Shown in pieces: positions 14,575-29,573 of a DNA stretch of 64,000 nucleotides (position 1 is its first letter; each line of letters opens with the position of its first letter). Both the position numbers and the translations under genes were made by a program. Below the pieces are notes generated by a model. It was not told the DNA's origin, ran no database searches, and was given only the letters and a program-made list of their open reading frames with translations. Origin of the DNA: Planctomycetota bacterium (GTDB lineage: Bacteria; Planctomycetota; UBA8108; SXIK01); assembly GCA_965223845.1 (NCBI GenBank), contig CBDCXR010000004.1:5856001-5920000 (forward strand). Reading direction: 5' to 3'.

Positions 14575-17500
14575 TCACTCGCACGGCGGAAAGAACTCGC
14601 ACTCGAGCTCGTCCGCGGTCGGGTCGAATCCGCAGAAGGGATAGAACGGCGCCGGCGGTGCGGATCCGGCCATGAACGAGTAGCCGAGCGTCCACATCAC
14701 GTCGGAGATGTCGACCTCGCCGTCGTCGTTCGCGTCGGCGGCATCCATGCACTTCGGTGGGCGTCCGTCGACGAAGAGGAAGAGCACGGTCCAGATCGGA
14801 TCGGCGATGTCGAGGAGCGAGTCCGAATTCGCATCGCCGCGGACGAACGCGCGCTCGCCGCGCTCGATCGTAACCTGGAACGTACACGTCGACTCGTTCC
14901 CTGCGGCGTCGCGCGCGCGGCAAGTGATCGTGTGCTCGCCGAGCGTGAGGCGACTTCCCGATGGCGGATTGCAGTCGATGAACACCTCGTCGTCGCCCGC
15001 GCAGAGATCCGTCGCGGTCGGGGCATTGAAGGTGACGATCGTCGTACAGGGAATCGGTCCGCGCTCGTTCGTCGGCGGCCAGCCCGGCGGCTTCTGCGCT
15101 TCTTCGCCCACGGAATCGCATTCGAGGAAGAGATCGACGAGGTCGTCGCAGAGAATCTCGGGTGCCGTGCGATCGATGACGGTCACGGTGAATGAGCACT
15201 CGGCTTCGTTCCCTTCGGCGTCCGTCGCCACGCAGGTCACGGTCGTCTGGCCGACCGGAAAGAGGCTTCCCGAGGCCGGAGTGCACACGACCGCGACGTC
15301 GGGATCGCAGGCGTCTTCCGCGGCGACGTCAAAGTCGACGACCGCACCTTCCCCCGAGGTACACTCCGTGACGATCGGCTCGGGACAAGTGAGCGCGGGC
15401 GGCGTGGTATCGACGACGTTCACGACGAACGAGCATTGCGTCGAATTGCCCGAGCTGTCGGTCGAGGTGCAGACGACCTCGGTCTCGCCGAGCGGGAAGA
15501 TTGTCCCCGAGGGCGGAACGCATTCGACCGGAGGTTGGCCGTCGCACGCGTCATTGCTCACCGGGAGGTCGTACTCGACGAGCGCGCCGCCCTCGCGGTC
15601 GCACTGAACCATCATCGTCGGTGGACAGATGAGCTCGGGCGCGACCTCGTCGACGACCGTGATCGTGAACTCGCAGCTCGCCGAGTTCCCGGACGCGTCG
15701 GTTGCGGTACACGTAACGACGTGCGATCCCGGCGGAAGGACACTCCCCGAGGGAGGATCGCACTCGACGACGGGACGCGGATCGCAGTCGTCGGCGGCTG
15801 CCGGCAGCGGAAACTCGACGACCGAGCCTCCGTCCTCGGTGCAGGAGCGCTCGAACCCTTCAGGACATTCGATCGTCGGCGGCGTGTTGTCGAACACGGT
15901 GACGCTAAAGGAGCACATCGACTCGTTCCCGAGATTGTCGGTCGCAGTGCACTCAACGACCGTGACGCCGAGCGGGAAGAGACTCCCCGACGGAGGCACG
16001 CATTCGACGACGGGGTTCGGATCGCCGGAGTCCGACGCGGTGACGTCGAAGCTGACGACCGCGCCGTCGGCCGATGTGCAGTGCGCCTCGATGTCGCTCG
16101 GGCACTCGATCATCGGCGGGCCGGAGTCGGTCACGATGACGTTAAACGAGCATTCGATGACGTTTCCGCCTTGATCGTCGGCGGTGCAGGTGACGACCGT
16201 CGTCCCGATCGGAAACATGCTCCCCGACGGGGGAAGGCACGAGAGGTTCGGGGCGGGATCGCAGTTGTCGTTCGTCACTGGCGTCGTGTACTCGACCACC
16301 GCGCCTTCGGGACTCGTCGCTTCGGTCGTGATGTCGCCGACGCAGAGGAGCTCCGGCACTTCCACGTCGACGACCTCGATGTCGAACGTGCACTCCGAGG
16401 CGTTTCCGCTCGCATCGGTCGCCGTGCACGTGACGCTGTTTACGCCGAGAGGGATGACCGCGCCGCTCGGCGGGTCGCACACGAGGACCGGATCGGCGTC
16501 GCATGCATCGAAGACGACGGGAAGCGGATACTGCACTTTGCCACCGTCGTCGCATTCGACGACGATCGCTTCGGGCGGGCAGACGATCATCGGCGGAGTT
16601 CGGTCGACGACGGTGACGTCGAACGAACATTCCGCTGAGTTTCCGGCCGCATCGGTCGCGGTACAGACGACGGTCGTCACTCCGACGTCGAAGTTTGAAC
16701 CGGACGGAGGGTCGCAGGTGGCAGTCACGGAAGTGTCACACTGGTCCACGGCGCTGACCTCGAACATGACGACCGATCCTTCGGCCGATTCGCACTCGTA
16801 CGTGAAGCTCTCGGGGCAATGGATGGCGGGCGGAAGCGTATCGACGACGGAGACGGAGAACTCGCTCTCGCTTTCGTTCCCGAACTGATCGGTCGCGCGG
16901 CAGGTCACCACCGTGACGCCCGGTAGAAACACCGATCCGCGCGGAGGGTCGCATTCGACCGCGGGTGATGGGTCGCACGCGTCGACGGCCGTTACCGAGA
17001 AGTCGACGGGAGTTCCGCCCGGACCCGCGCACTCGACGATGAGGTCGGCGGGCGCGACGATCTGCGGCGGCGAGAGATCGTCGACCGTCACCGAGAACTC
17101 GCAACTCATCTCGTTTCCGCTCGAGTCCGTCGCCGTGCAGGTGACGAGCGTCGTTCCCATCGGGAAGAACGAGCCCGACGGCGGATCGCACGCGATGGTG
17201 ACGTCGCCGTCGCACTCACCGACGACCACGGGTGCGGGGTAGTCGACGGTGGCGCCGTCGACGCTGTCGCAGTCGACGAGGACATCTTCAAGGCAAACGA
17301 TAGCCGGAGGTGCTTCGTCGACGACGACCACCTCGAATGAGCACTCGGACGAATTCCCCGAGGAGTCGGTCGCGGTGCAAGTCACGGTCGTCGTTCCGGG
17401 CTGGAACGCGCTTCCCGATGGTGGCTCACAGACGATCGTCACTCCGCCGTCCCCGCAGGCGTCGGTCGCCATCGGAGACGGAAACTCGACCTCGACGCCG

Positions 17501-19308
17501 CCTCCGACGGGGCCATCGGCGCTGCAGGAAACTTCGATCGGCCCCTGCGGACAGGTGATCCGCGGCGGGGTCGTATCGCGCACGACAACCGAGAATTCGC
17601 ATTCGGCGCTGTTTCCCGCCTCGTCGGTCGCGACGCAGCGGACGATCGTCTCGCCGAGCGGGAACGCGCTTCCGGACGGCGGGTCGCAAACGACGTCGAC
17701 ATCGGGGTCGCAGCGATCGGAAGCGACCGATCGAAAAAAGACCGGCGTGCCGTTCTCCGATGTGCACTCGACCGTGATGTCGCTTGGGCAAACGACGGCG
17801 GGCGGCGTCGTATCGACGATGTTGACGACGAACTCGCACTGATACATGTCGCCGGCGTCCGTCGTCGCCGTGCAGCGAACGGTGGTTTCGCCGAGGGGAA
17901 AGAGGCTTCCGGACGGCGGATCGCACTCGACGGTCGCCGGCGTCTCGCAGGAGAGACTGAGCATCGGAAGCGGAAACTCGACGGTCGCGCCGCCCGGCTC
18001 CGTCGCTTCGGCGGTGACGTCACCGGCGCAGTAGAGTAGCGGTTCGGCGTCGGCGACGACCTCGACCACAAACGTCGCCTCGGAGGAGTTGCCCGAATCG
18101 TCGCTCGCGACGCAGGTGACGGTGGTCGCGCCGACTGGAAAGACACTTCCGCTCGGCGGGTCGCAAATGATCTCGACGTCGCGATCGCAGATATCGGTCG
18201 CGACCGGCGCGGGATAGTTGACGACGGCGTCATCACCGCCCGCGCAGTCGACGACGATGCGCTCGGCCGGAACGCTGAGCGCCGGAGGAGTCGTATCGAC
18301 GACTTCGACCTCGAACGAGCAGCACTCCTTGTTCCCTTGAAGATCGATCACCTGGCATCGCACCGTCCGGCGACCGAGCGGAAGGATCGTTCCCGGCGGC
18401 GGAAAGCAGATCACCTTCGGGTTCGGATCACAGTCGTCCTCGGCGTGAACGTCGTAGACGATCGCGGCGCCTTCGGGGCACTGGCACTCGAAGGTGAGAA
18501 CGCCTTCGGGGCAGCGAATCGTCGGCGGAGTCGTATCGTCCGGACAGAGCGCGCAATCGCCGGACTCGGGATTCGATCGCCAGACGTCGCGGAGGATGTT
18601 GGCGAGGCGCGCGATCGTGAGCCCGCAGGGATCGCCGCCGCCCGGGCAGCTCGCGAGCTCGCAGAGCGTTTGCGCGGCAGCGAGGAACTCGGAAAGCGGG
18701 GTCGCTTCGGTGACGACGAGCGCGGCATCCGGATCTCCCGCATCCGGATCCGGGACGAAGATCGCGCCGCAGCGAAGGACGACGCGGAAGGGATCGATCC
18801 CGAAACACGAGAGAGTGTTCTCGCTGAGCTTTCCGTCGCCGAAGAGACGCGAGCGGCGGAGGTTGAGCTCCGTCACGAGCGCGTCGGACTTCAGCCAGAC
18901 GCAGGGTTCACCGTCGATCCGATTCGTCCGGAGAATGCGCTGCGCATCCGCGGCAGTCGCGACGACTTCGCCGCACACCGACGGCGGATCGAGTGGATCG
19001 TCCGGCGTCCCGAGCAGCAAGGTCTCGAGCGGATGGTCGTCGAACGACTTGTAGCAGGACCGCGGGTTGGTGCCGTCGTTTGACGGACATGCCCCGGGTC
19101 CACCTCCGTCGCCGGCGTCGAGCGCACCGGCGCCGCCGGCGAGATCGTCGGCCGTCGGACAGCCGAGGTCGATCGGCCCGTCGGCCGAAAGAGGACTCGC
19201 CGCGGAGAACGCGATGGCGGTCATGAGTCCCGCCGCCACTTTCAGAGCGGCCATCCCACGACATCCCCGCACGACGCGCGTCGACGCTTCGTCTCGCATC
19301 ACTCTCAC
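14575..19308 (-). CDS. Large secreted Cys-rich HYR-repeat protein (about 15 HYR domains) with a C-terminal dockerin-like domain
   Basis: About 15 units D..PP.I.CP...C.PPSGS.FP.G.T.V.C.ATD..GN...C.F.V.V; signal peptide (MAALKVAAGL..., possible start 19254); C-terminal FVRGDANSDSLLDIAD...DAADANDDGEVDISD. Confidence 0.9.
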   Translation of the reverse strand: MRVMRDEASTRVVRGCRGMAALKVAAGLMTAIAFSAASPLSADGPIDLGCPTADDLAGGAGALDAGDGGGPGACPSNDGTNPRSCYKSFDDHPLETLLLGTPDDPLDPPSVCGEVVATAADAQRILRTNRIDGEPCVWLKSDALVTELNLRRSRLFGDGKLSENTLSCFGIDPFRVVLRCGAIFVPDPDAGDPDAALVVTEATPLSEFLAAAQTLCELASCPGGGDPCGLTIARLANILRDVWRSNPESGDCALCPDDTTPPTIRCPEGVLTFECQCPEGAAIVYDVHAEDDCDPNPKVICFPPPGTILPLGRRTVRCQVIDLQGNKECCSFEVEVVDTTPPALSVPAERIVVDCAGGDDAVVNYPAPVATDICDRDVEIICDPPSGSVFPVGATTVTCVASDDSGNSSEATFVVEVVADAEPLLYCAGDVTAEATEPGGATVEFPLPMLSLSCETPATVECDPPSGSLFPLGETTVRCTATTDAGDMYQCEFVVNIVDTTPPAVVCPSDITVECTSENGTPVFFRSVASDRCDPDVDVVCDPPSGSAFPLGETIVRCVATDEAGNSAECEFSVVVRDTTPPRITCPQGPIEVSCSADGPVGGGVEVEFPSPMATDACGDGGVTIVCEPPSGSAFQPGTTTVTCTATDSSGNSSECSFEVVVVDEAPPAIVCLEDVLVDCDSVDGATVDYPAPVVVGECDGDVTIACDPPSGSFFPMGTTLVTCTATDSSGNEMSCEFSVTVDDLSPPQIVAPADLIVECAGPGGTPVDFSVTAVDACDPSPAVECDPPRGSVFLPGVTVVTCRATDQFGNESESEFSVSVVDTLPPAIHCPESFTYECESAEGSVVMFEVSAVDQCDTSVTATCDPPSGSNFDVGVTTVVCTATDAAGNSAECSFDVTVVDRTPPMIVCPPEAIVVECDDGGKVQYPLPVVFDACDADPVLVCDPPSGAVIPLGVNSVTCTATDASGNASECTFDIEVVDVEVPELLCVGDITTEATSPEGAVVEYTTPVTNDNCDPAPNLSCLPPSGSMFPIGTTVVTCTADDQGGNVIECSFNVIVTDSGPPMIECPSDIEAHCTSADGAVVSFDVTASDSGDPNPVVECVPPSGSLFPLGVTVVECTATDNLGNESMCSFSVTVFDNTPPTIECPEGFERSCTEDGGSVVEFPLPAAADDCDPRPVVECDPPSGSVLPPGSHVVTCTATDASGNSASCEFTITVVDEVAPELICPPTMMVQCDREGGALVEYDLPVSNDACDGQPPVECVPPSGTIFPLGETEVVCTSTDSSGNSTQCSFVVNVVDTTPPALTCPEPIVTECTSGEGAVVDFDVAAEDACDPDVAVVCTPASGSLFPVGQTTVTCVATDAEGNEAECSFTVTVIDRTAPEILCDDLVDLFLECDSVGEEAQKPPGWPPTNERGPIPCTTIVTFNAPTATDLCAGDDEVFIDCNPPSGSRLTLGEHTITCRARDAAGNESTCTFQVTIERGERAFVRGDANSDSLLDIADPIWTVLFLFVDGRPPKCMDAADANDDGEVDISDVMWTLGYSFMAGSAPPAPFYPFCGFDPTADELECEFFPPCE

Positions 19309-19538: not shown

Positions 19539-20867
19539 TCAGAATTTGACGGTCACGGAGCGGCGCTCTCCCTTTCGAAGAACGTCGAGCCGGAGCACGG
19601 ACCCGGGGCGATAGTGGTTCAGCCGCAGGTACGCGTGAAACTCGCCCTCGGAGCGATGCTCGGTGTGACCGTCGTAGCCGACGATCACGTCACCTTTCTT
19701 GAGGCCCGAACGGCGTACGGCCGAGCCGAAGATTCCGCGGACGTTCAGCGCGAGCTGGTTCGCCGCGATGCCCCGCTCCTTTTTCGCGTCCGGCTTGAAC
19801 GCTTGCACCCAGAGTCCAGGCGACGGCGGCATTCCGTACATCGAACCGCGCCAGGAGAGATTCCCCTCTCGCCATTTTCCCGAGAGCGCGAGCGTCGCGG
19901 CGATGGTTCCGCCGTCGCGTTTCAGCGTCGCGGGGAGCTCCGTCTTGACCGGAAGGTGATGCAGCACGAACTGCACGTCGGCGAAGGAGAGGATCTTTTG
20001 GCCGCCGAGTGTGTCGAGCTCGTCGCCCGGACGGATTCCCGCTCGGGCCGCCGCTGAGTCGGGAACGACCCGCTCGACGCGGCGTCCACCGGTCCTCTCG
20101 AGGACGACGCCGACGGAATCGGGAAGCGGATACTTCCAAAGCTTCCGCGGATCGTACGTCCCCGCGTCGAGGGCGACGTCGTGAAACGCGTCGTAGACGT
20201 TGTGGCAGTGGATGCACTGCTCGCGCCCCGGCTTCCGGGCGAGGATCTTTCGGATGCGCTTCGAAGGGATCTCCTTCACGAGGCGAACCTTCGGCGACGG
20301 TCCCTTCTTCGCCGCGAAGAAGTCGCGGTTCTTCGGATAACGAGAGTGCTCCTCGAGCACGCGCTCCATCGTCTTCGTGAGACCGGCGACGGAGTTGATC
20401 GCCATCGGCCCTTCCTTCGTGCGACTCCCGTACCTCGCGAATACGGTTCCGTCGGAGTGAAGAAAGAGCGCCGCCCAGGTGAGGTCGAAGTCGAATTGAT
20501 GCTGCGCGAGGTCGAGATCGTTCATGCGAACGATGCGGACGCAGACGAACTTCTCGGTCAGCTTCCTCAGCTTCGGATCGCGACGGACAACCTGCCCGTC
20601 AAAGCCTTTGCAGGTCTCTCACGGCACTCACCGAAAGAGGAGAAAGATCGGCTTCTTTTCTCGCGCAGCTTTCGCGCGGGCCGCCTCCCAATCGCCGTAG
20701 ATCCAGTGCGAAGCGATCTCGTCGCCGAGTTCGCGCTGGAGGGAGTCGGCGCCGTCCTGGGCCGGCGCGACTGAAGAAAGTGCGCCGGTGAGAATTCCGA
20801 GCGTGCCGAGCGCGATGAGCGCGCGCAGCGTCCTTCGGGATAAGGAAGATGAGTGCGAACGCGACAT
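19539..20867 (-). CDS. Thioredoxin-like / CxxCH / double-PDZ protein; candidate selenoprotein with two in-frame UGA (UxxU)
   Basis: ORFs 20628-20888 and 19539-20525 are in the same frame and joined by ...LLFR-TGA-GTG-CCG-TGA-GAG-ACC-TGC...(FR*VP*ETCKGFDGQVVRRD..KFVCVRIVRMN). GGAGG RBS before ATG 20867, signal peptide, HWIY.DWEAARAKAAREKKPIFLLFR thioredoxin-like start, CIHCH, two PDZ-like segments. Confidence 0.8.
20582..20600 (-). promoter_or_regulatory. Candidate bacterial SECIS hairpin
   Basis: mRNA GACGGGCA-GGU-UGUCCGUC (8-bp stem including one G-U, G-containing apical loop) starting 18 nt after the second UGA; contains GCAGGU as in the apical part of the E. coli fdhF SECIS. Confidence 0.6.
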
Positions 20868-26483: not shown

Positions 26484-27953
26484 ATGCTCGTCATTCCGGG
26501 CGACCAAGGACGGGTTACGTGCGACGGACTTTCGCGGCGCGAGCTGCTCCGGATCGGAGGCTCCGCGCTACTGGGCCTGAGTCTCCCGCAGCTCCTCGAG
26601 CTTCAGGCCGCATCGGCGGCTTCCGTCGCCGGGAAGTTTTCCGGGGCGGCGGGCTTCGGTAAGGCGAAGAGCGTCATCCTGATTTACCTCCAGGGCGGAC
26701 CGAGCCACCTCGACCTCTGGGACCCGAAGACGGACGTCCCGAGCGATGTGAAGAGCATCTTCAAGCCCATCAAGTCGAAGGTGCCCGGGATGGAAGTCAC
26801 CGAGCTCCTCCCGAACCTCGCGAAGGTGACCGACAAGTTCACGTTCATCCGGACGATGAGCTACACGCCGAACGGCCTCTTCAATCACACCGCGGCGATC
26901 TACCAGATGCTGACCGGCTACACCGCGGACAAGGTGAGCCCGTCCGGCCAGCTCGAGCCGCCGACTCCGAAAGACTTTCCGCACGTCGGCTCGAACATCG
27001 CGAAATTGAAGCCGCCGACCGTGCCGATGCTGCCCTTCGTCATGATGCCGCGGCCGCTTCAGGAGAGTAACGTCGTCGGAAAGGGCGGGACGGCCGGTTT
27101 CCTCGGCCGAGCGTACGATCCCTTTACGCTCTACCCGTCGGGCGACGATCTCGACAACTCGAAGATGGACCGGATCAAGATCGACGACCTCACGATGCGC
27201 CAGGAGCTCACGACTCCGCGAATGCGTCGCCGGGCGAATCTCTTGAAGGCGATCAACGGCGGCATGCCGGCGCTCGAGAAGGCCGTCGCGAAGTACGATC
27301 TCAATCAGTACACCGAGAAGGCGCTCAGCCTCGTTCTTTCGGGACGTGCGCGGAACGCGTTCGATCTCAAGCAAGAACCGGACAAGCTTCGCGACGAGTA
27401 CGGCCGAACGACCTTCGGTCAGTGCTGTCTCCTCGCGCGTCGCCTCGTCGAATCGGGCACGCGCTTCGTCGAGGTGAACTGGCCGAAGATCGCGAACTCC
27501 GATCGCCACTCGTGGGACGTCCACGTCGGGCTCCCCGATCGGATGAAGAAGCTCTCCGGGCCGATGCTCGACCCGGGACTCGCGACCTTGATTCGCGATC
27601 TCGACGACCGCGGGCTTCTCGACGACACGCTCGTCGTCGCCGTCGGCGAGTTCGGCCGCAGCCCGAAGCGCGGCATCAGCACCTCCGGAAACGGAAACTC
27701 CGCCGACGGACGCGACCACTGGCCGTACTGCTACACCGCCGTCGTCGCCGGCGGCGGCGTGAAGCGGGGAAACGTCTACGGTCAATCGGACGCGACCGCG
27801 TCGGGCCCCATCGACAATCCGGTCAGCCCCCAAAACCTGCTCGCTACGATCTACCACGCGATGGGTCTCGACCCGCACATGATGATCTACAACCACCTCA
27901 ATCAGCCTCGGGAGATGGTGCAGGGCGATCCGGTCCTCGACCTCTTCGCCTGA
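26484..27953 (+). CDS. DUF1501 domain-containing protein
   Basis: [81 protein letters not shown]. Confidence 0.93.
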
Positions 27954-28169: not shown

Positions 28170-29573
28170 ATGAATTCGCTCCGATATACGACACTCTTCC
28201 TCGCCGTCCTCGGAGGCGCGAAAGCGGTCCACGCGGACGACGCGACCAGCGGCGAAGGAGTCAGCTATTTTCGCGACGTCTGGCCGATTTTTCGCGCCAA
28301 GTGTCAGGGTTGTCATCAGCCAGCGAAGCCGGGAGGGAAGTTCGTGCTCACCTCACACGAGCTTCTGATGGCCGGGAGCCGCGGCGATCCGGTCGTCGTA
28401 CCCGGAAAGCCGGATGAGAGCTCGCTCCTCGACGAGATCACTCCGGACGGCGACGATCCCCCGGCGATGCCGAAGGACGCCGCGCCCCTCTCGGAAACCG
28501 AGGTCGCGACGATTCGACAGTGGATCGCCGCGGGGGCGAAGGACGACACGCCGGCGTCGGCCAAGGTGAGATTCGACGCCGACCATCCGCCGGTCTACGA
28601 GAACGCCCCGGTCCTCACCGCCGTCGATTGTTCCCCGGACGGAACACTCATCGCGGCGTCGGGTTACCACGAAGTCCTCCTCCACAAGGCGGACGGAACC
28701 GGGCTTGCCGGGCGACTGGTCGGTCTCTCCGAGAGGATCGAATCGCTGCAGTTCTCTCCCGACGGGAAGAAGCTTGCCGTGACGGGCGGATCGCCGTCGC
28801 AGATGGGTGAAGTTCAGATCTGGGACGTCGAGAAGCAGAAGCTGCTCGTCGGGCACGCGACGACATTCGACAGTGTCTACGGTGCGAGCTGGTCGAACGA
28901 CGGGAAGCTCGTCGCCTTCGGCTGCGCAGACAACTCGGTCCGCGCGATCGACGCGACGTCCGGAAACCAGGTGCTCTTCCAGGGCGCTCACAACGATTGG
29001 GTGCTCGGGACCGCGTTCTCGGTAGACGCATCCCATCTCGTGTCGGTGAGCCGTGATCGCAGCATGAAGCTGATCAAGGTCGACACCGAGCAGTTCATCG
29101 ACAACATCACGAGCATCACGCCCGGAGCGCTCAAGGGTGGCTTGATCGCCGTCGACTGCCATCCGAAGGAGGATCGACTTCTCGTCGGCGGTGCGGACGG
29201 CACGCCGAAGATCTACCGGATGCACCGCGAAAAGGCGCGAAAGATCGGCGACGACTTCAACCTCATTCGCGCGTTCGGCGCGATGCCGGGCCGGCTCTAT
29301 TCGGTGGAGTTCAACGCCGACGGCAGCCGGTTCATCGCGGGGAGCAGCTTCAACGGACGCGGGGAGATCCGCAGCTATCAGACGGCGGACGGCAAGCAAG
29401 ATTGGGCGACGAAGCTCGAGACCGCGGTCTATTCGGTCGCTTACAGCCACGACTACGGACGAGTCGCCGTCGGCGGCTATGACGGCATGATAAGGATTCT
29501 CGACGCGAAGAGCGGCGAGGAAGTCCAGCGGTGGGCGGCGGCGCCGGTACAGCGAACGCGCCGCGAGTTCTGA
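28170..29573 (+). CDS. Planctomycete cytochrome c domain + WD40 repeat protein
   Basis: Signal peptide; VSYFRDVWPIFRAKCQGCH, VVPGKPDESSL, PAMP, IRQWIAAGA; WD40-like repeats (FSPDGKKLAV, AHNDWVLG). Confidence 0.92.
   Translation: MNSLRYTTLFLAVLGGAKAVHADDATSGEGVSYFRDVWPIFRAKCQGCHQPAKPGGKFVLTSHELLMAGSRGDPVVVPGKPDESSLLDEITPDGDDPPAMPKDAAPLSETEVATIRQWIAAGAKDDTPASAKVRFDADHPPVYENAPVLTAVDCSPDGTLIAASGYHEVLLHKADGTGLAGRLVGLSERIESLQFSPDGKKLAVTGGSPSQMGEVQIWDVEKQKLLVGHATTFDSVYGASWSNDGKLVAFGCADNSVRAIDATSGNQVLFQGAHNDWVLGTAFSVDASHLVSVSRDRSMKLIKVDTEQFIDNITSITPGALKGGLIAVDCHPKEDRLLVGGADGTPKIYRMHREKARKIGDDFNLIRAFGAMPGRLYSVEFNADGSRFIAGSSFNGRGEIRSYQTADGKQDWATKLETAVYSVAYSHDYGRVAVGGYDGMIRILDAKSGEEVQRWAAAPVQRTRREF

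Follow-up and report, generated by a model that had tools for sequence, protein, structure and literature searches.

Selenoprotein L, a diselenide-forming and peroxiredoxin (Prx)-like protein, carries two selenocysteine (Sec, U) residues two residues apart on a fold of the thioredoxin (Trx) superfamily, and in this spacing and fold it resembles the predicted product of the gene described here. The gene lies on the minus strand at 19539–20867 of a 64,000-nucleotide stretch (hereafter the window) from the genome of a Planctomycetota bacterium (assembly GCA_965223845.1, contig CBDCXR010000004.1, positions 5,856,001–5,920,000 of the forward strand), and it is predicted to encode an exported protein with a Thioredoxin_7 (Trx7) domain, two PDZ domains, and two Sec residues, Sec80 and Sec83, each specified by an in-frame UGA codon. 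The two systems differ in the placement of the Sec residues and in their decoding. In selenoprotein L the UxxU motif takes the place of the canonical CxxC, whereas here the second U alone is canonical and a third Cys follows; selenoprotein L is decoded by means of a eukaryotic Sec insertion sequence (SECIS) in the 3′ untranslated region, whereas the planctomycete gene has in-frame bacterial hairpins. A Pfam scan of the protein gave no match to the AhpC-TSA/Prx family.

Among bacterial systems, the UXXU Group 4 [NiFeSe] hydrogenases likewise carry a pair of UGAs three codons apart, followed by a conserved SECIS that is common to the CXXU and UXXU forms (PMC13582414). The Sec residues of these enzymes are Ni ligands, and the authors suggest a single SECIS while noting an enrichment of tRNA-ReC; how a bacterial ribosome decodes two UGAs that are nine bases apart is stated in the same text to be an open question (PMC13582414). 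Unlike the hydrogenases, the present system came with no tRNA-ReC-like gene in the scored part of the genome search (150 of 1240 first-look candidates), and it has a second hairpin that is specific to the UxxU forms. The VPGUxxT families NF041382 and NF041383 share with our protein the V-P-(G)-U-x-x-[T/C] context and a Trx7-like domain, but the similarity is weak and N-terminal (32.5 and 24.2 bits versus cut-offs of 275 and 350), and these families lack PDZ domains, have a single Sec, and carry Thr where the resolving Cys would be. Finally, the tandem PDZ module is reminiscent of those of DegP, DegQ, and RseP, although a Trx-fold domain stands here where those proteins have a protease domain.

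A member of the Trx7/PDZ family

Taken by itself, the gene is an unremarkable member of a curated family. Its product matches NCBIfam NF041199 (Trx7/PDZ domain-containing (seleno)protein) at 414.6 bits against a cut-off of 300, and does so end to end, with residues 54–441 on profile positions 1–389 of 390; the order of Thioredoxin_7 followed by PDZ, as in NF041199, is present both in the Pfam matches and in the model folds. An earlier note on this DNA, made from the letters alone, had mentioned a Trx7/PDZ (seleno)protein family, which indeed exists and includes this gene; the note's description of the selenoprotein as hidden does not hold for the kind, since the family is curated and listed in reviews. 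A 2022 review has an entry "PDZ domain-containing protein, pfam13899, CxxU" (PMC9312934), and a "putative secreted serine protease MucD" family, for which two selenoprotein reads and the motif CxxU were given, goes back to the Global Ocean Sampling paper (PMC2398784). From cross-references we infer that these two entries and NF041199 are the same family.

In the tables of both reviews, that of 2022 and one of 2026, the family motif is CxxU, the latter giving one Sec. Measured against the reviews' description of NF041199, our protein has the same architecture of Trx7 plus two PDZ domains and a Sec at the second motif position, and differs at the first motif position, where Sec replaces Cys too, as it does in 70 of the 150 phylum matches listed; for annotation this means that the form commonest in the phylum among those matches has two Sec residues versus the single Sec of the CxxU motif in the review tables. 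In the passages of the literature that bear on the matter, UxxU is tied only to Prx-like proteins, NF041115, FmdB, and the Group 4 hydrogenases, and the supplements of these papers may hold two-Sec members. What appears to be new is the prevalence of the two-Sec form in the phylum, the U-xx-UxxC active site, and the second hairpin beside the first UGA.

Two conserved UGA codons in one reading frame

The elements of the gene that bear on its recoding are as follows.

19539..20867, minus strand: whole gene, 442 codons plus a TGA stop; in-frame UGA codons for predicted Sec80 and Sec83; NF041199 member
20628..20630, minus strand: UGA1, predicted Sec80, the extra family-invariant Cys/Sec, three residues N-terminal of the canonical active-site residue
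20619..20621, minus strand: UGA2, predicted Sec83, which occupies the place of the N-terminal (nucleophilic) Cys in the canonical Trx-fold CxxC
20610..20612, minus strand: UGC codon of Cys86, the canonical resolving Cys; the G of the codon sits in the loop of hairpin 1
20601..20619, minus strand: hairpin 1, core CCU-GCAA-AGG at 20614–20605 plus outer pairs; −5.1 kcal/mol
20582..20600, minus strand: hairpin 2, the predicted main SECIS, GACGGGCA-GGU-UGUCCGUC; 8 bp; −12.0 kcal/mol
20520..20705, minus strand: Thioredoxin_7 domain, PF13899, residues 55–116 by Pfam; the modeled fold reaches further

A single frame runs on the minus strand from the ATG at 20867 to the stop at 19539–19541 and is broken solely by TGA codons at 20630–20628 and 20621–20619, and the read-through product contains ...KPIFLLFR-U-VP-U-ETCKGFDGQV.... 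Open reading frame (ORF) calling with table 11 cuts this frame into an 86-aa and a 328-aa ORF, the former holding the conserved Trx domain in frame. The earlier note's proposal that both annotated ORFs belong to a single frame containing two TGAs is confirmed by the letters, the translation, and conservation among homologs. Both TGAs also stand in other sequence data: across 20500–20760 the letters are identical, with zero differences listed, in contigs of four public runs, all belonging to one study, from which the assembly itself may derive. No RNA dataset was among the public runs listed as carrying the sequence.

A search of 41 related genomes yielded 22 full homologs, of which 16 have the pattern U..U..C, 2 have C..U..C, and 4 have C..C..C. 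In an even sample of the phylum, 130 of 401 genomes gave a match at E ≤ 1e-30, and a hand count of the 150 matches listed (23 further matches lie beyond these) found two TGAs in 70, one in 40, three in 1, and none in 39. The two-Sec state is thus the commonest form in the phylum among the matches listed. A set of 90 homologs was then fetched from other genomes, comprising 49 two-Sec, 28 one-Sec (three of these rows read by eye), and 13 Cys forms; 20 one-TGA and 20 two-TGA places were chosen on purpose, and these proportions therefore do not represent a census. In all 90, both positions are occupied by TGA or a Cys codon and by nothing else, which excludes chance TGAs, and the two-TGA pattern of the 49 extends over 46 genomes, 25 family codes, and 34 genus codes. 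The expectation that homologs would have C-x-P-C at the two TGA positions was borne out, the full-length Cys homologs in the protein database reading FRCVPCxxC. Many other database homologs are fragments of 330–360 aa without the Trx domain, called 3′ of the TGAs and so annotated without their catalytic domain. One search of genome contigs with the protein returned no confirmed relative; the relatives came from the genome search. One phylum homolog (G179:C148:7988-8971) is listed with three in-frame TGAs.

The source genome itself holds three paralogs, namely the gene described here, a two-TGA copy (G000:C4:861970-863238) that reads UIPUHAC, is 37% identical, and has both hairpins, and a Cys copy (G000:C4:324650-325936) that reads CVPCDAC, is 40% identical, and has neither. 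The genome (7.9 Mb in 4 contigs, 91.7% complete) also encodes the machinery for Sec, for which the earlier note had suggested looking: selA (536 bits), selB (320 bits), and selD (308 bits) each score above their own cut-offs, and a single tRNA-Sec scores 68.1 bits on RF01852 and is called tRNA-SeC with anticodon UCA by ARAGORN, with a G before the CCA end. No tRNA-ReC-like or second tRNA-Sec-like gene was found among the RF01852 matches of the 150 scored candidates, the six other sub-threshold matches being ordinary tRNA-Ser, -Leu, -Thr, -Tyr, or -Gly. From these sequence comparisons, the two-Sec selenoprotein gene is predicted to be genuine.

The main SECIS

The loop of hairpin 2 begins 26 nt past UGA2 and 35 nt past UGA1, distances that had already been read from the sequence and that we confirm, and its stem begins 18 nt past UGA2. 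The constraints on a bacterial SECIS (bSECIS), as given in the Fig. 2 legend of PMC13188914, are a loop of 3–9 nt, a stem of 4–16 bp, a distance of 16–37 nt from the UGA, a G in the first two loop positions, and a minimum free energy (MFE) of −7.5 kcal/mol or lower. Hairpin 2, with its GGU loop, 8 bp, and −12.0 kcal/mol, agrees with every one of these for both UGAs.

Class counts were made on non-redundant sequences (44 two-Sec, 25 one-Sec, 13 Cys). A hairpin 2 of −7 kcal/mol or lower is present in 44/44 two-Sec and 24/25 one-Sec forms and in 1/13 Cys forms, its codon register is identical in every Sec form, and a G lies within the first two loop positions in 69/69 Sec forms. The helix is 92% paired, and at pair 41–51 the combinations GC (25), CG (9), UA (4), AU (3), and GU (2) are all encountered; this covariation couples the second base of a variable codon with the wobble position of an Ala or Val codon. 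Hairpin 2 is accordingly a predicted covarying SECIS of the Sec forms that is absent from the Cys forms. An Rfam scan of 20400–20800 at E ≤ 10 matched zero families.

A further observation concerns the public runs. In three of the four run assemblies a contig ends or starts at 20583–20614, owing to an exact 30–32-base word shared with another contig of 2820 bases. The word comprises hairpin 2 and, ahead of it, the 3′ half of hairpin 1; beyond it the 2820-base contig continues differently. That contig probably stems from a homologous gene of a different organism in the sample, and the SECIS would thus be strongly conserved as DNA.

A second hairpin between UGA2 and the SECIS

Hairpin 1 adjoins UGA2, occupying the interval between UGA2 and the SECIS, and its loop begins 16 nt past UGA1. 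It was followed through window energies and recoding controls because its register shifts among members; a fixed-register structure, only 63% of which was paired, was dropped, and RNAalifold retained hairpin 2 only. A hairpin of −4.5 kcal/mol or lower is present in the window for hairpin 1 in 39/44 two-Sec forms, 3/25 one-Sec forms, and 1/13 Cys forms. For the control, copies were recoded synonymously with class-specific codon usage. In the two-Sec class the observed mean energy was −5.99 kcal/mol against −2.73 ± 0.30 in the recoded copies (z −10.7), while the one-Sec class (−2.30 observed, −2.47 recoded, z 0.6) and the Cys class (−2.89 observed, −2.69 recoded, z −0.4) stayed at the level of their controls. 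Flanking control windows gave z from −2.7 to 2.3, and the GC content at third codon positions is 0.75–0.76 in all three classes. Hairpin 1 is maintained through synonymous codon choice in the two-UGA members.

A quick maximum-likelihood tree of 87 rows, built with the motif columns masked, places at least 17 changes on the two-Sec state. Among 10 phylogenetically independent pairs that differ in this state, hairpin 1 was concordant in 7.9 and discordant in 1.1, and a sign test on the independent pairs gave a median p of 0.039 (range 0.0215–0.18). As selection on hairpin 1 is limited to the forms with UGA1, and as the hairpin tracks UGA1 on the tree, it would seem to have some function tied to UGA1. 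Set against the bSECIS constraints for UGA1, it has a GCAA loop with G first, a distance of 16 nt, and a stem of 3 + 4 bp with a bulge, and its MFE falls short of −7.5; in the two-Sec forms a G is found within the first two loop positions in 35/44. The distribution of hairpin 1 among the classes and its upkeep through codon choice suggest an arrangement of one hairpin per UGA. Hairpin 1 appears to be undescribed in the literature.

Active site, fold, and possible function

The remaining features of the protein are listed here.

20763..20867, minus strand: signal-like N-terminus, approximately residues 1–35; basic SRRTLR, hydrophobic run, VAPA-Q; read from the translation
20202..20216, minus strand: C218-I-H220-C221-H222, residues 218–222; at a helix start in the model
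19959..20078, minus strand: PDZ domain 1, PF17820, residues 264–303 (Pfam)
19545..19724, minus strand: PDZ domain 2, PF13180, residues 382–441 (Pfam)

Two observations place the canonical pair of the Trx fold at U83 and C86, namely a profile alignment to proteins of known structure and the point at which a modeled helix begins. When a profile of the domain was compared with sequences of the Protein Data Bank, both Cys of the WCTDC motif of 3fk8, a Xylella disulfide isomerase, fell on U83 and C86, and the Cys of the CPHS motif of AGR2 fell on U83. In AlphaFold2 models (good quality, with a pLDDT of 83.0 over the full length and 88.8 over the domain alone) a helix begins just past residue 83. 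The predicted canonical CxxC is thus Sec83-x-x-Cys86, and Sec80 is an extra, family-defining residue at −3; for the family as a whole, the predicted motif is [U/C]xx[U/C]xxC, whose last two positions are the canonical Trx pair. The earlier note had placed both TGAs exactly at the Trx-fold CxxC, which stands for the second TGA and fails for the first, the profile alignment putting U80 at −3. Its comparison with selenoprotein L, with UxxU replacing CxxC, is for the same reason replaced by U-xx-[UxxC].

Whole-model searches with Foldseek gave PDZ proteins only, and the N-terminal domain was therefore folded separately. The modeled Trx domain resembles AGR2, ERp19, a Bacteroides cytochrome c biogenesis-related protein, a DsbH-domain protein, and DsbD-gamma, and the C-terminal half of the protein superposes on the tandem PDZ of DegP, DegQ, and RseP (Foldseek, E 5e-12 and weaker). 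Eight positions are invariant in 78/78 aligned domain sequences, namely 80, 83, D90, R111, C218, H220, C221, and H222. The CIHCH motif and the two PDZ domains of the earlier note are both present, the latter by Pfam; the motif, C-I-H-C-H, is invariant in all 78 homologs and, with no cytochrome or metal family matched in Pfam at E ≤ 0.1, could serve as a second redox pair or else bind a metal or heme c. Together with the U-x-x-U-x-x-C site of the Trx fold, in a predicted exported protein whose PDZ domains may bind substrates, it makes up an unusual putative redox or metal center.

Cys86 is nearly invariant (Cys in 80/87 parsed homologs, replaced in 7/87). The homologs that lack it and retain positions 80 and 83 are L047, L055, and L078, with C..U..G, and L062, L063, L067, and L108, with U..U followed by N, A, F, or S. 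Such proteins suggest that the 80–83 pair may be able to work without Cys86.

The signal-like segment was judged by eye from the translation, and hydrophobic N-termini are seen in the homologs too. Residues 9–14 (20826–20843), in the context LSRRTLRAL ahead of the hydrophobic run, are twin-arginine-like, a feature not common to the aligned homologs. The combination of signal-like N-terminus, Trx fold, and PDZ domains points to an exported or envelope selenol/thiol oxidoreductase for peptide substrates. In such an enzyme the PDZ domains would recruit the peptides, and Sec80, three positions ahead of Sec83, would join the active-site pair Sec83 and Cys86 as a third residue, specific to the family and with a redox or ligand role, giving a U-x-x-U-x-x-C site.

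Decoding of the two UGA codons and alternative explanations

The best explanation overall, and one that we consider very probable, is a single exported two-Sec Trx7/PDZ gene in which hairpins direct the reading of both UGAs as Sec. The 442-residue product would consist, from its N-terminus, of a signal peptide, the Trx-fold domain, a helical linker that bears the C-x-H-C-H motif, and the two PDZ domains. Both in-frame UGAs would be read by the genome's own SelA, SelB, SelD, and tRNA-Sec, with the strong covarying SECIS of hairpin 2 directing the recoding. Hairpin 1 would serve UGA1. It might do so as an additional, weak SelB site, for which an E. coli-like geometry can be invoked, or by compacting the spacer, which would keep the main SECIS near the ribosome; the ribosome would then melt hairpin 1, and hairpin 2 would serve UGA2 three codons on. 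For such tandem-hairpin decoding the prospects are nearly even. A more specific version is somewhat more tentative: the adjacent hairpins would form a tandem signal used in turn, hairpin 1 arising whenever the upstream Cys codon becomes UGA, by way of codon choice and of coupled amino-acid substitutions near the Cys86 codon, and the ancestral SECIS serving UGA2; the resulting U-x-x-U-x-x-C site could alternate between a diselenide (80–83) and a selenylsulfide (83–86). If true, the two hairpins would constitute a compact signal for tandem recoding and would answer the question, raised by the 2026 work on the UXXU hydrogenases, of how UxxU motifs are decoded. Several points weigh against these proposals. 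The phylogeny-corrected test of hairpin 1 is only modest (p 0.0215–0.18); the hairpin is weak, at −5.1 kcal/mol here and about −6.0 on average, versus the bSECIS limit of −7.5; its register slides by one or two columns among members (63% paired when fixed); and it is absent from 5/44 two-Sec forms and present in 3/25 one-Sec forms. Hairpin 2 alone fits the bSECIS distances for both UGAs, so that hairpin 1 may be unneeded, and the neighbors of the gene are not conserved, tblastn of three flanking products versus all fetched loci having matched their own locus only.

The earlier note had considered that one SECIS might serve two UGAs, and a reading of this kind is possible, if rather doubtful. 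Hairpin 2 would then serve both codons, and hairpin 1 would not bind SelB, being a by-product, a pause or spacer element, or a shield of UGA2 from release factor 2 (RF2). The distances of 26 and 35 nt both lie inside the 16–37 nt range, hairpin 2 is the same and in the same place in one-Sec and two-Sec forms, and hairpin 1 does not reach the MFE threshold of the bSECIS model; a single SECIS is likewise what the authors of the work on the UXXU hydrogenases propose (PMC13582414). Against it stand the hairpin that lies between UGA2 and the SECIS specifically in two-UGA forms, the synonymous-site selection on it only where UGA1 exists, and its pattern of following UGA1 gains and losses on the tree. 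It is very improbable that one or both UGAs are read as Cys, by a tRNA of the tRNA-ReC/selC* type, or as another residue: tRNA-ReC-like genes are reported to be enriched in genomes with UXXU hydrogenases (PMC13582414), but the present genome has selA, selB, and selD, and its sole tRNA-Sec-like gene among the 150 of 1240 candidates scored has the UCA anticodon and the G before CCA. Table 11 yields two ORFs, and many database homologs are called as 330–360 aa fragments, as would be expected if the two annotated ORFs were correct and the TGAs marked a pseudogene or sequencing errors; the chance of this is negligible in view of the identical TGA positions in 49 fetched homologs from 46 genomes, a covarying hairpin confined to TGA-bearing forms, the identical letters in four assemblies, and the conserved Trx domain in frame in the 86-aa ORF. 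Both the pseudogene and the error readings were rejected on the conservation of the TGA positions. With respect to chemistry, U-x-x-U(-x-x-C) and C-x-H-C-H might bind a metal or cofactor (a soft metal, an Fe-S cluster, or heme) and undergo no diselenide or selenylsulfide cycling. The invariance of the eight positions named above, the dispensability of Cys86 in 7/87, and the classing of other bacterial UxxU proteins (NF041115) as metal-binding in the reviews would fit such a center, which we nevertheless regard as unlikely given that no metal or cytochrome family was matched at E ≤ 0.1 and that the closest folds are thiol-disulfide oxidoreductases.

For the mechanism of two-UGA decoding, the family supplies 44 non-redundant two-UGA sequences, 25 one-UGA sequences, and 13 Cys controls, together with a hairpin 1 that can be mutated.

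Gene surroundings

As the neighboring genes are not conserved, the context gives no functional clue. Pfam searches of ten flanking ORFs identified Beta-lactamase/Esterase, DUF1501, and WD40/PSCyt1 domains only, and none of these is linked to the gene. Genes of the DUF1501 and PSCyt1/WD40 kinds hint at the phylum Planctomycetota. Directly downstream and on the same strand, at 14575–19308 (minus), is a highly repetitive, Cys-rich ORF of 1577 aa, and tblastn with its N-terminal 400 residues against the fetched loci identified no counterpart beside the homologs. On the plus strand, a DUF1501 protein is encoded at 26484–27953, and the product of 28170–29573 is a WD40 protein whose N-terminus carries a PSCyt1 (Planctomycete cytochrome C) domain.

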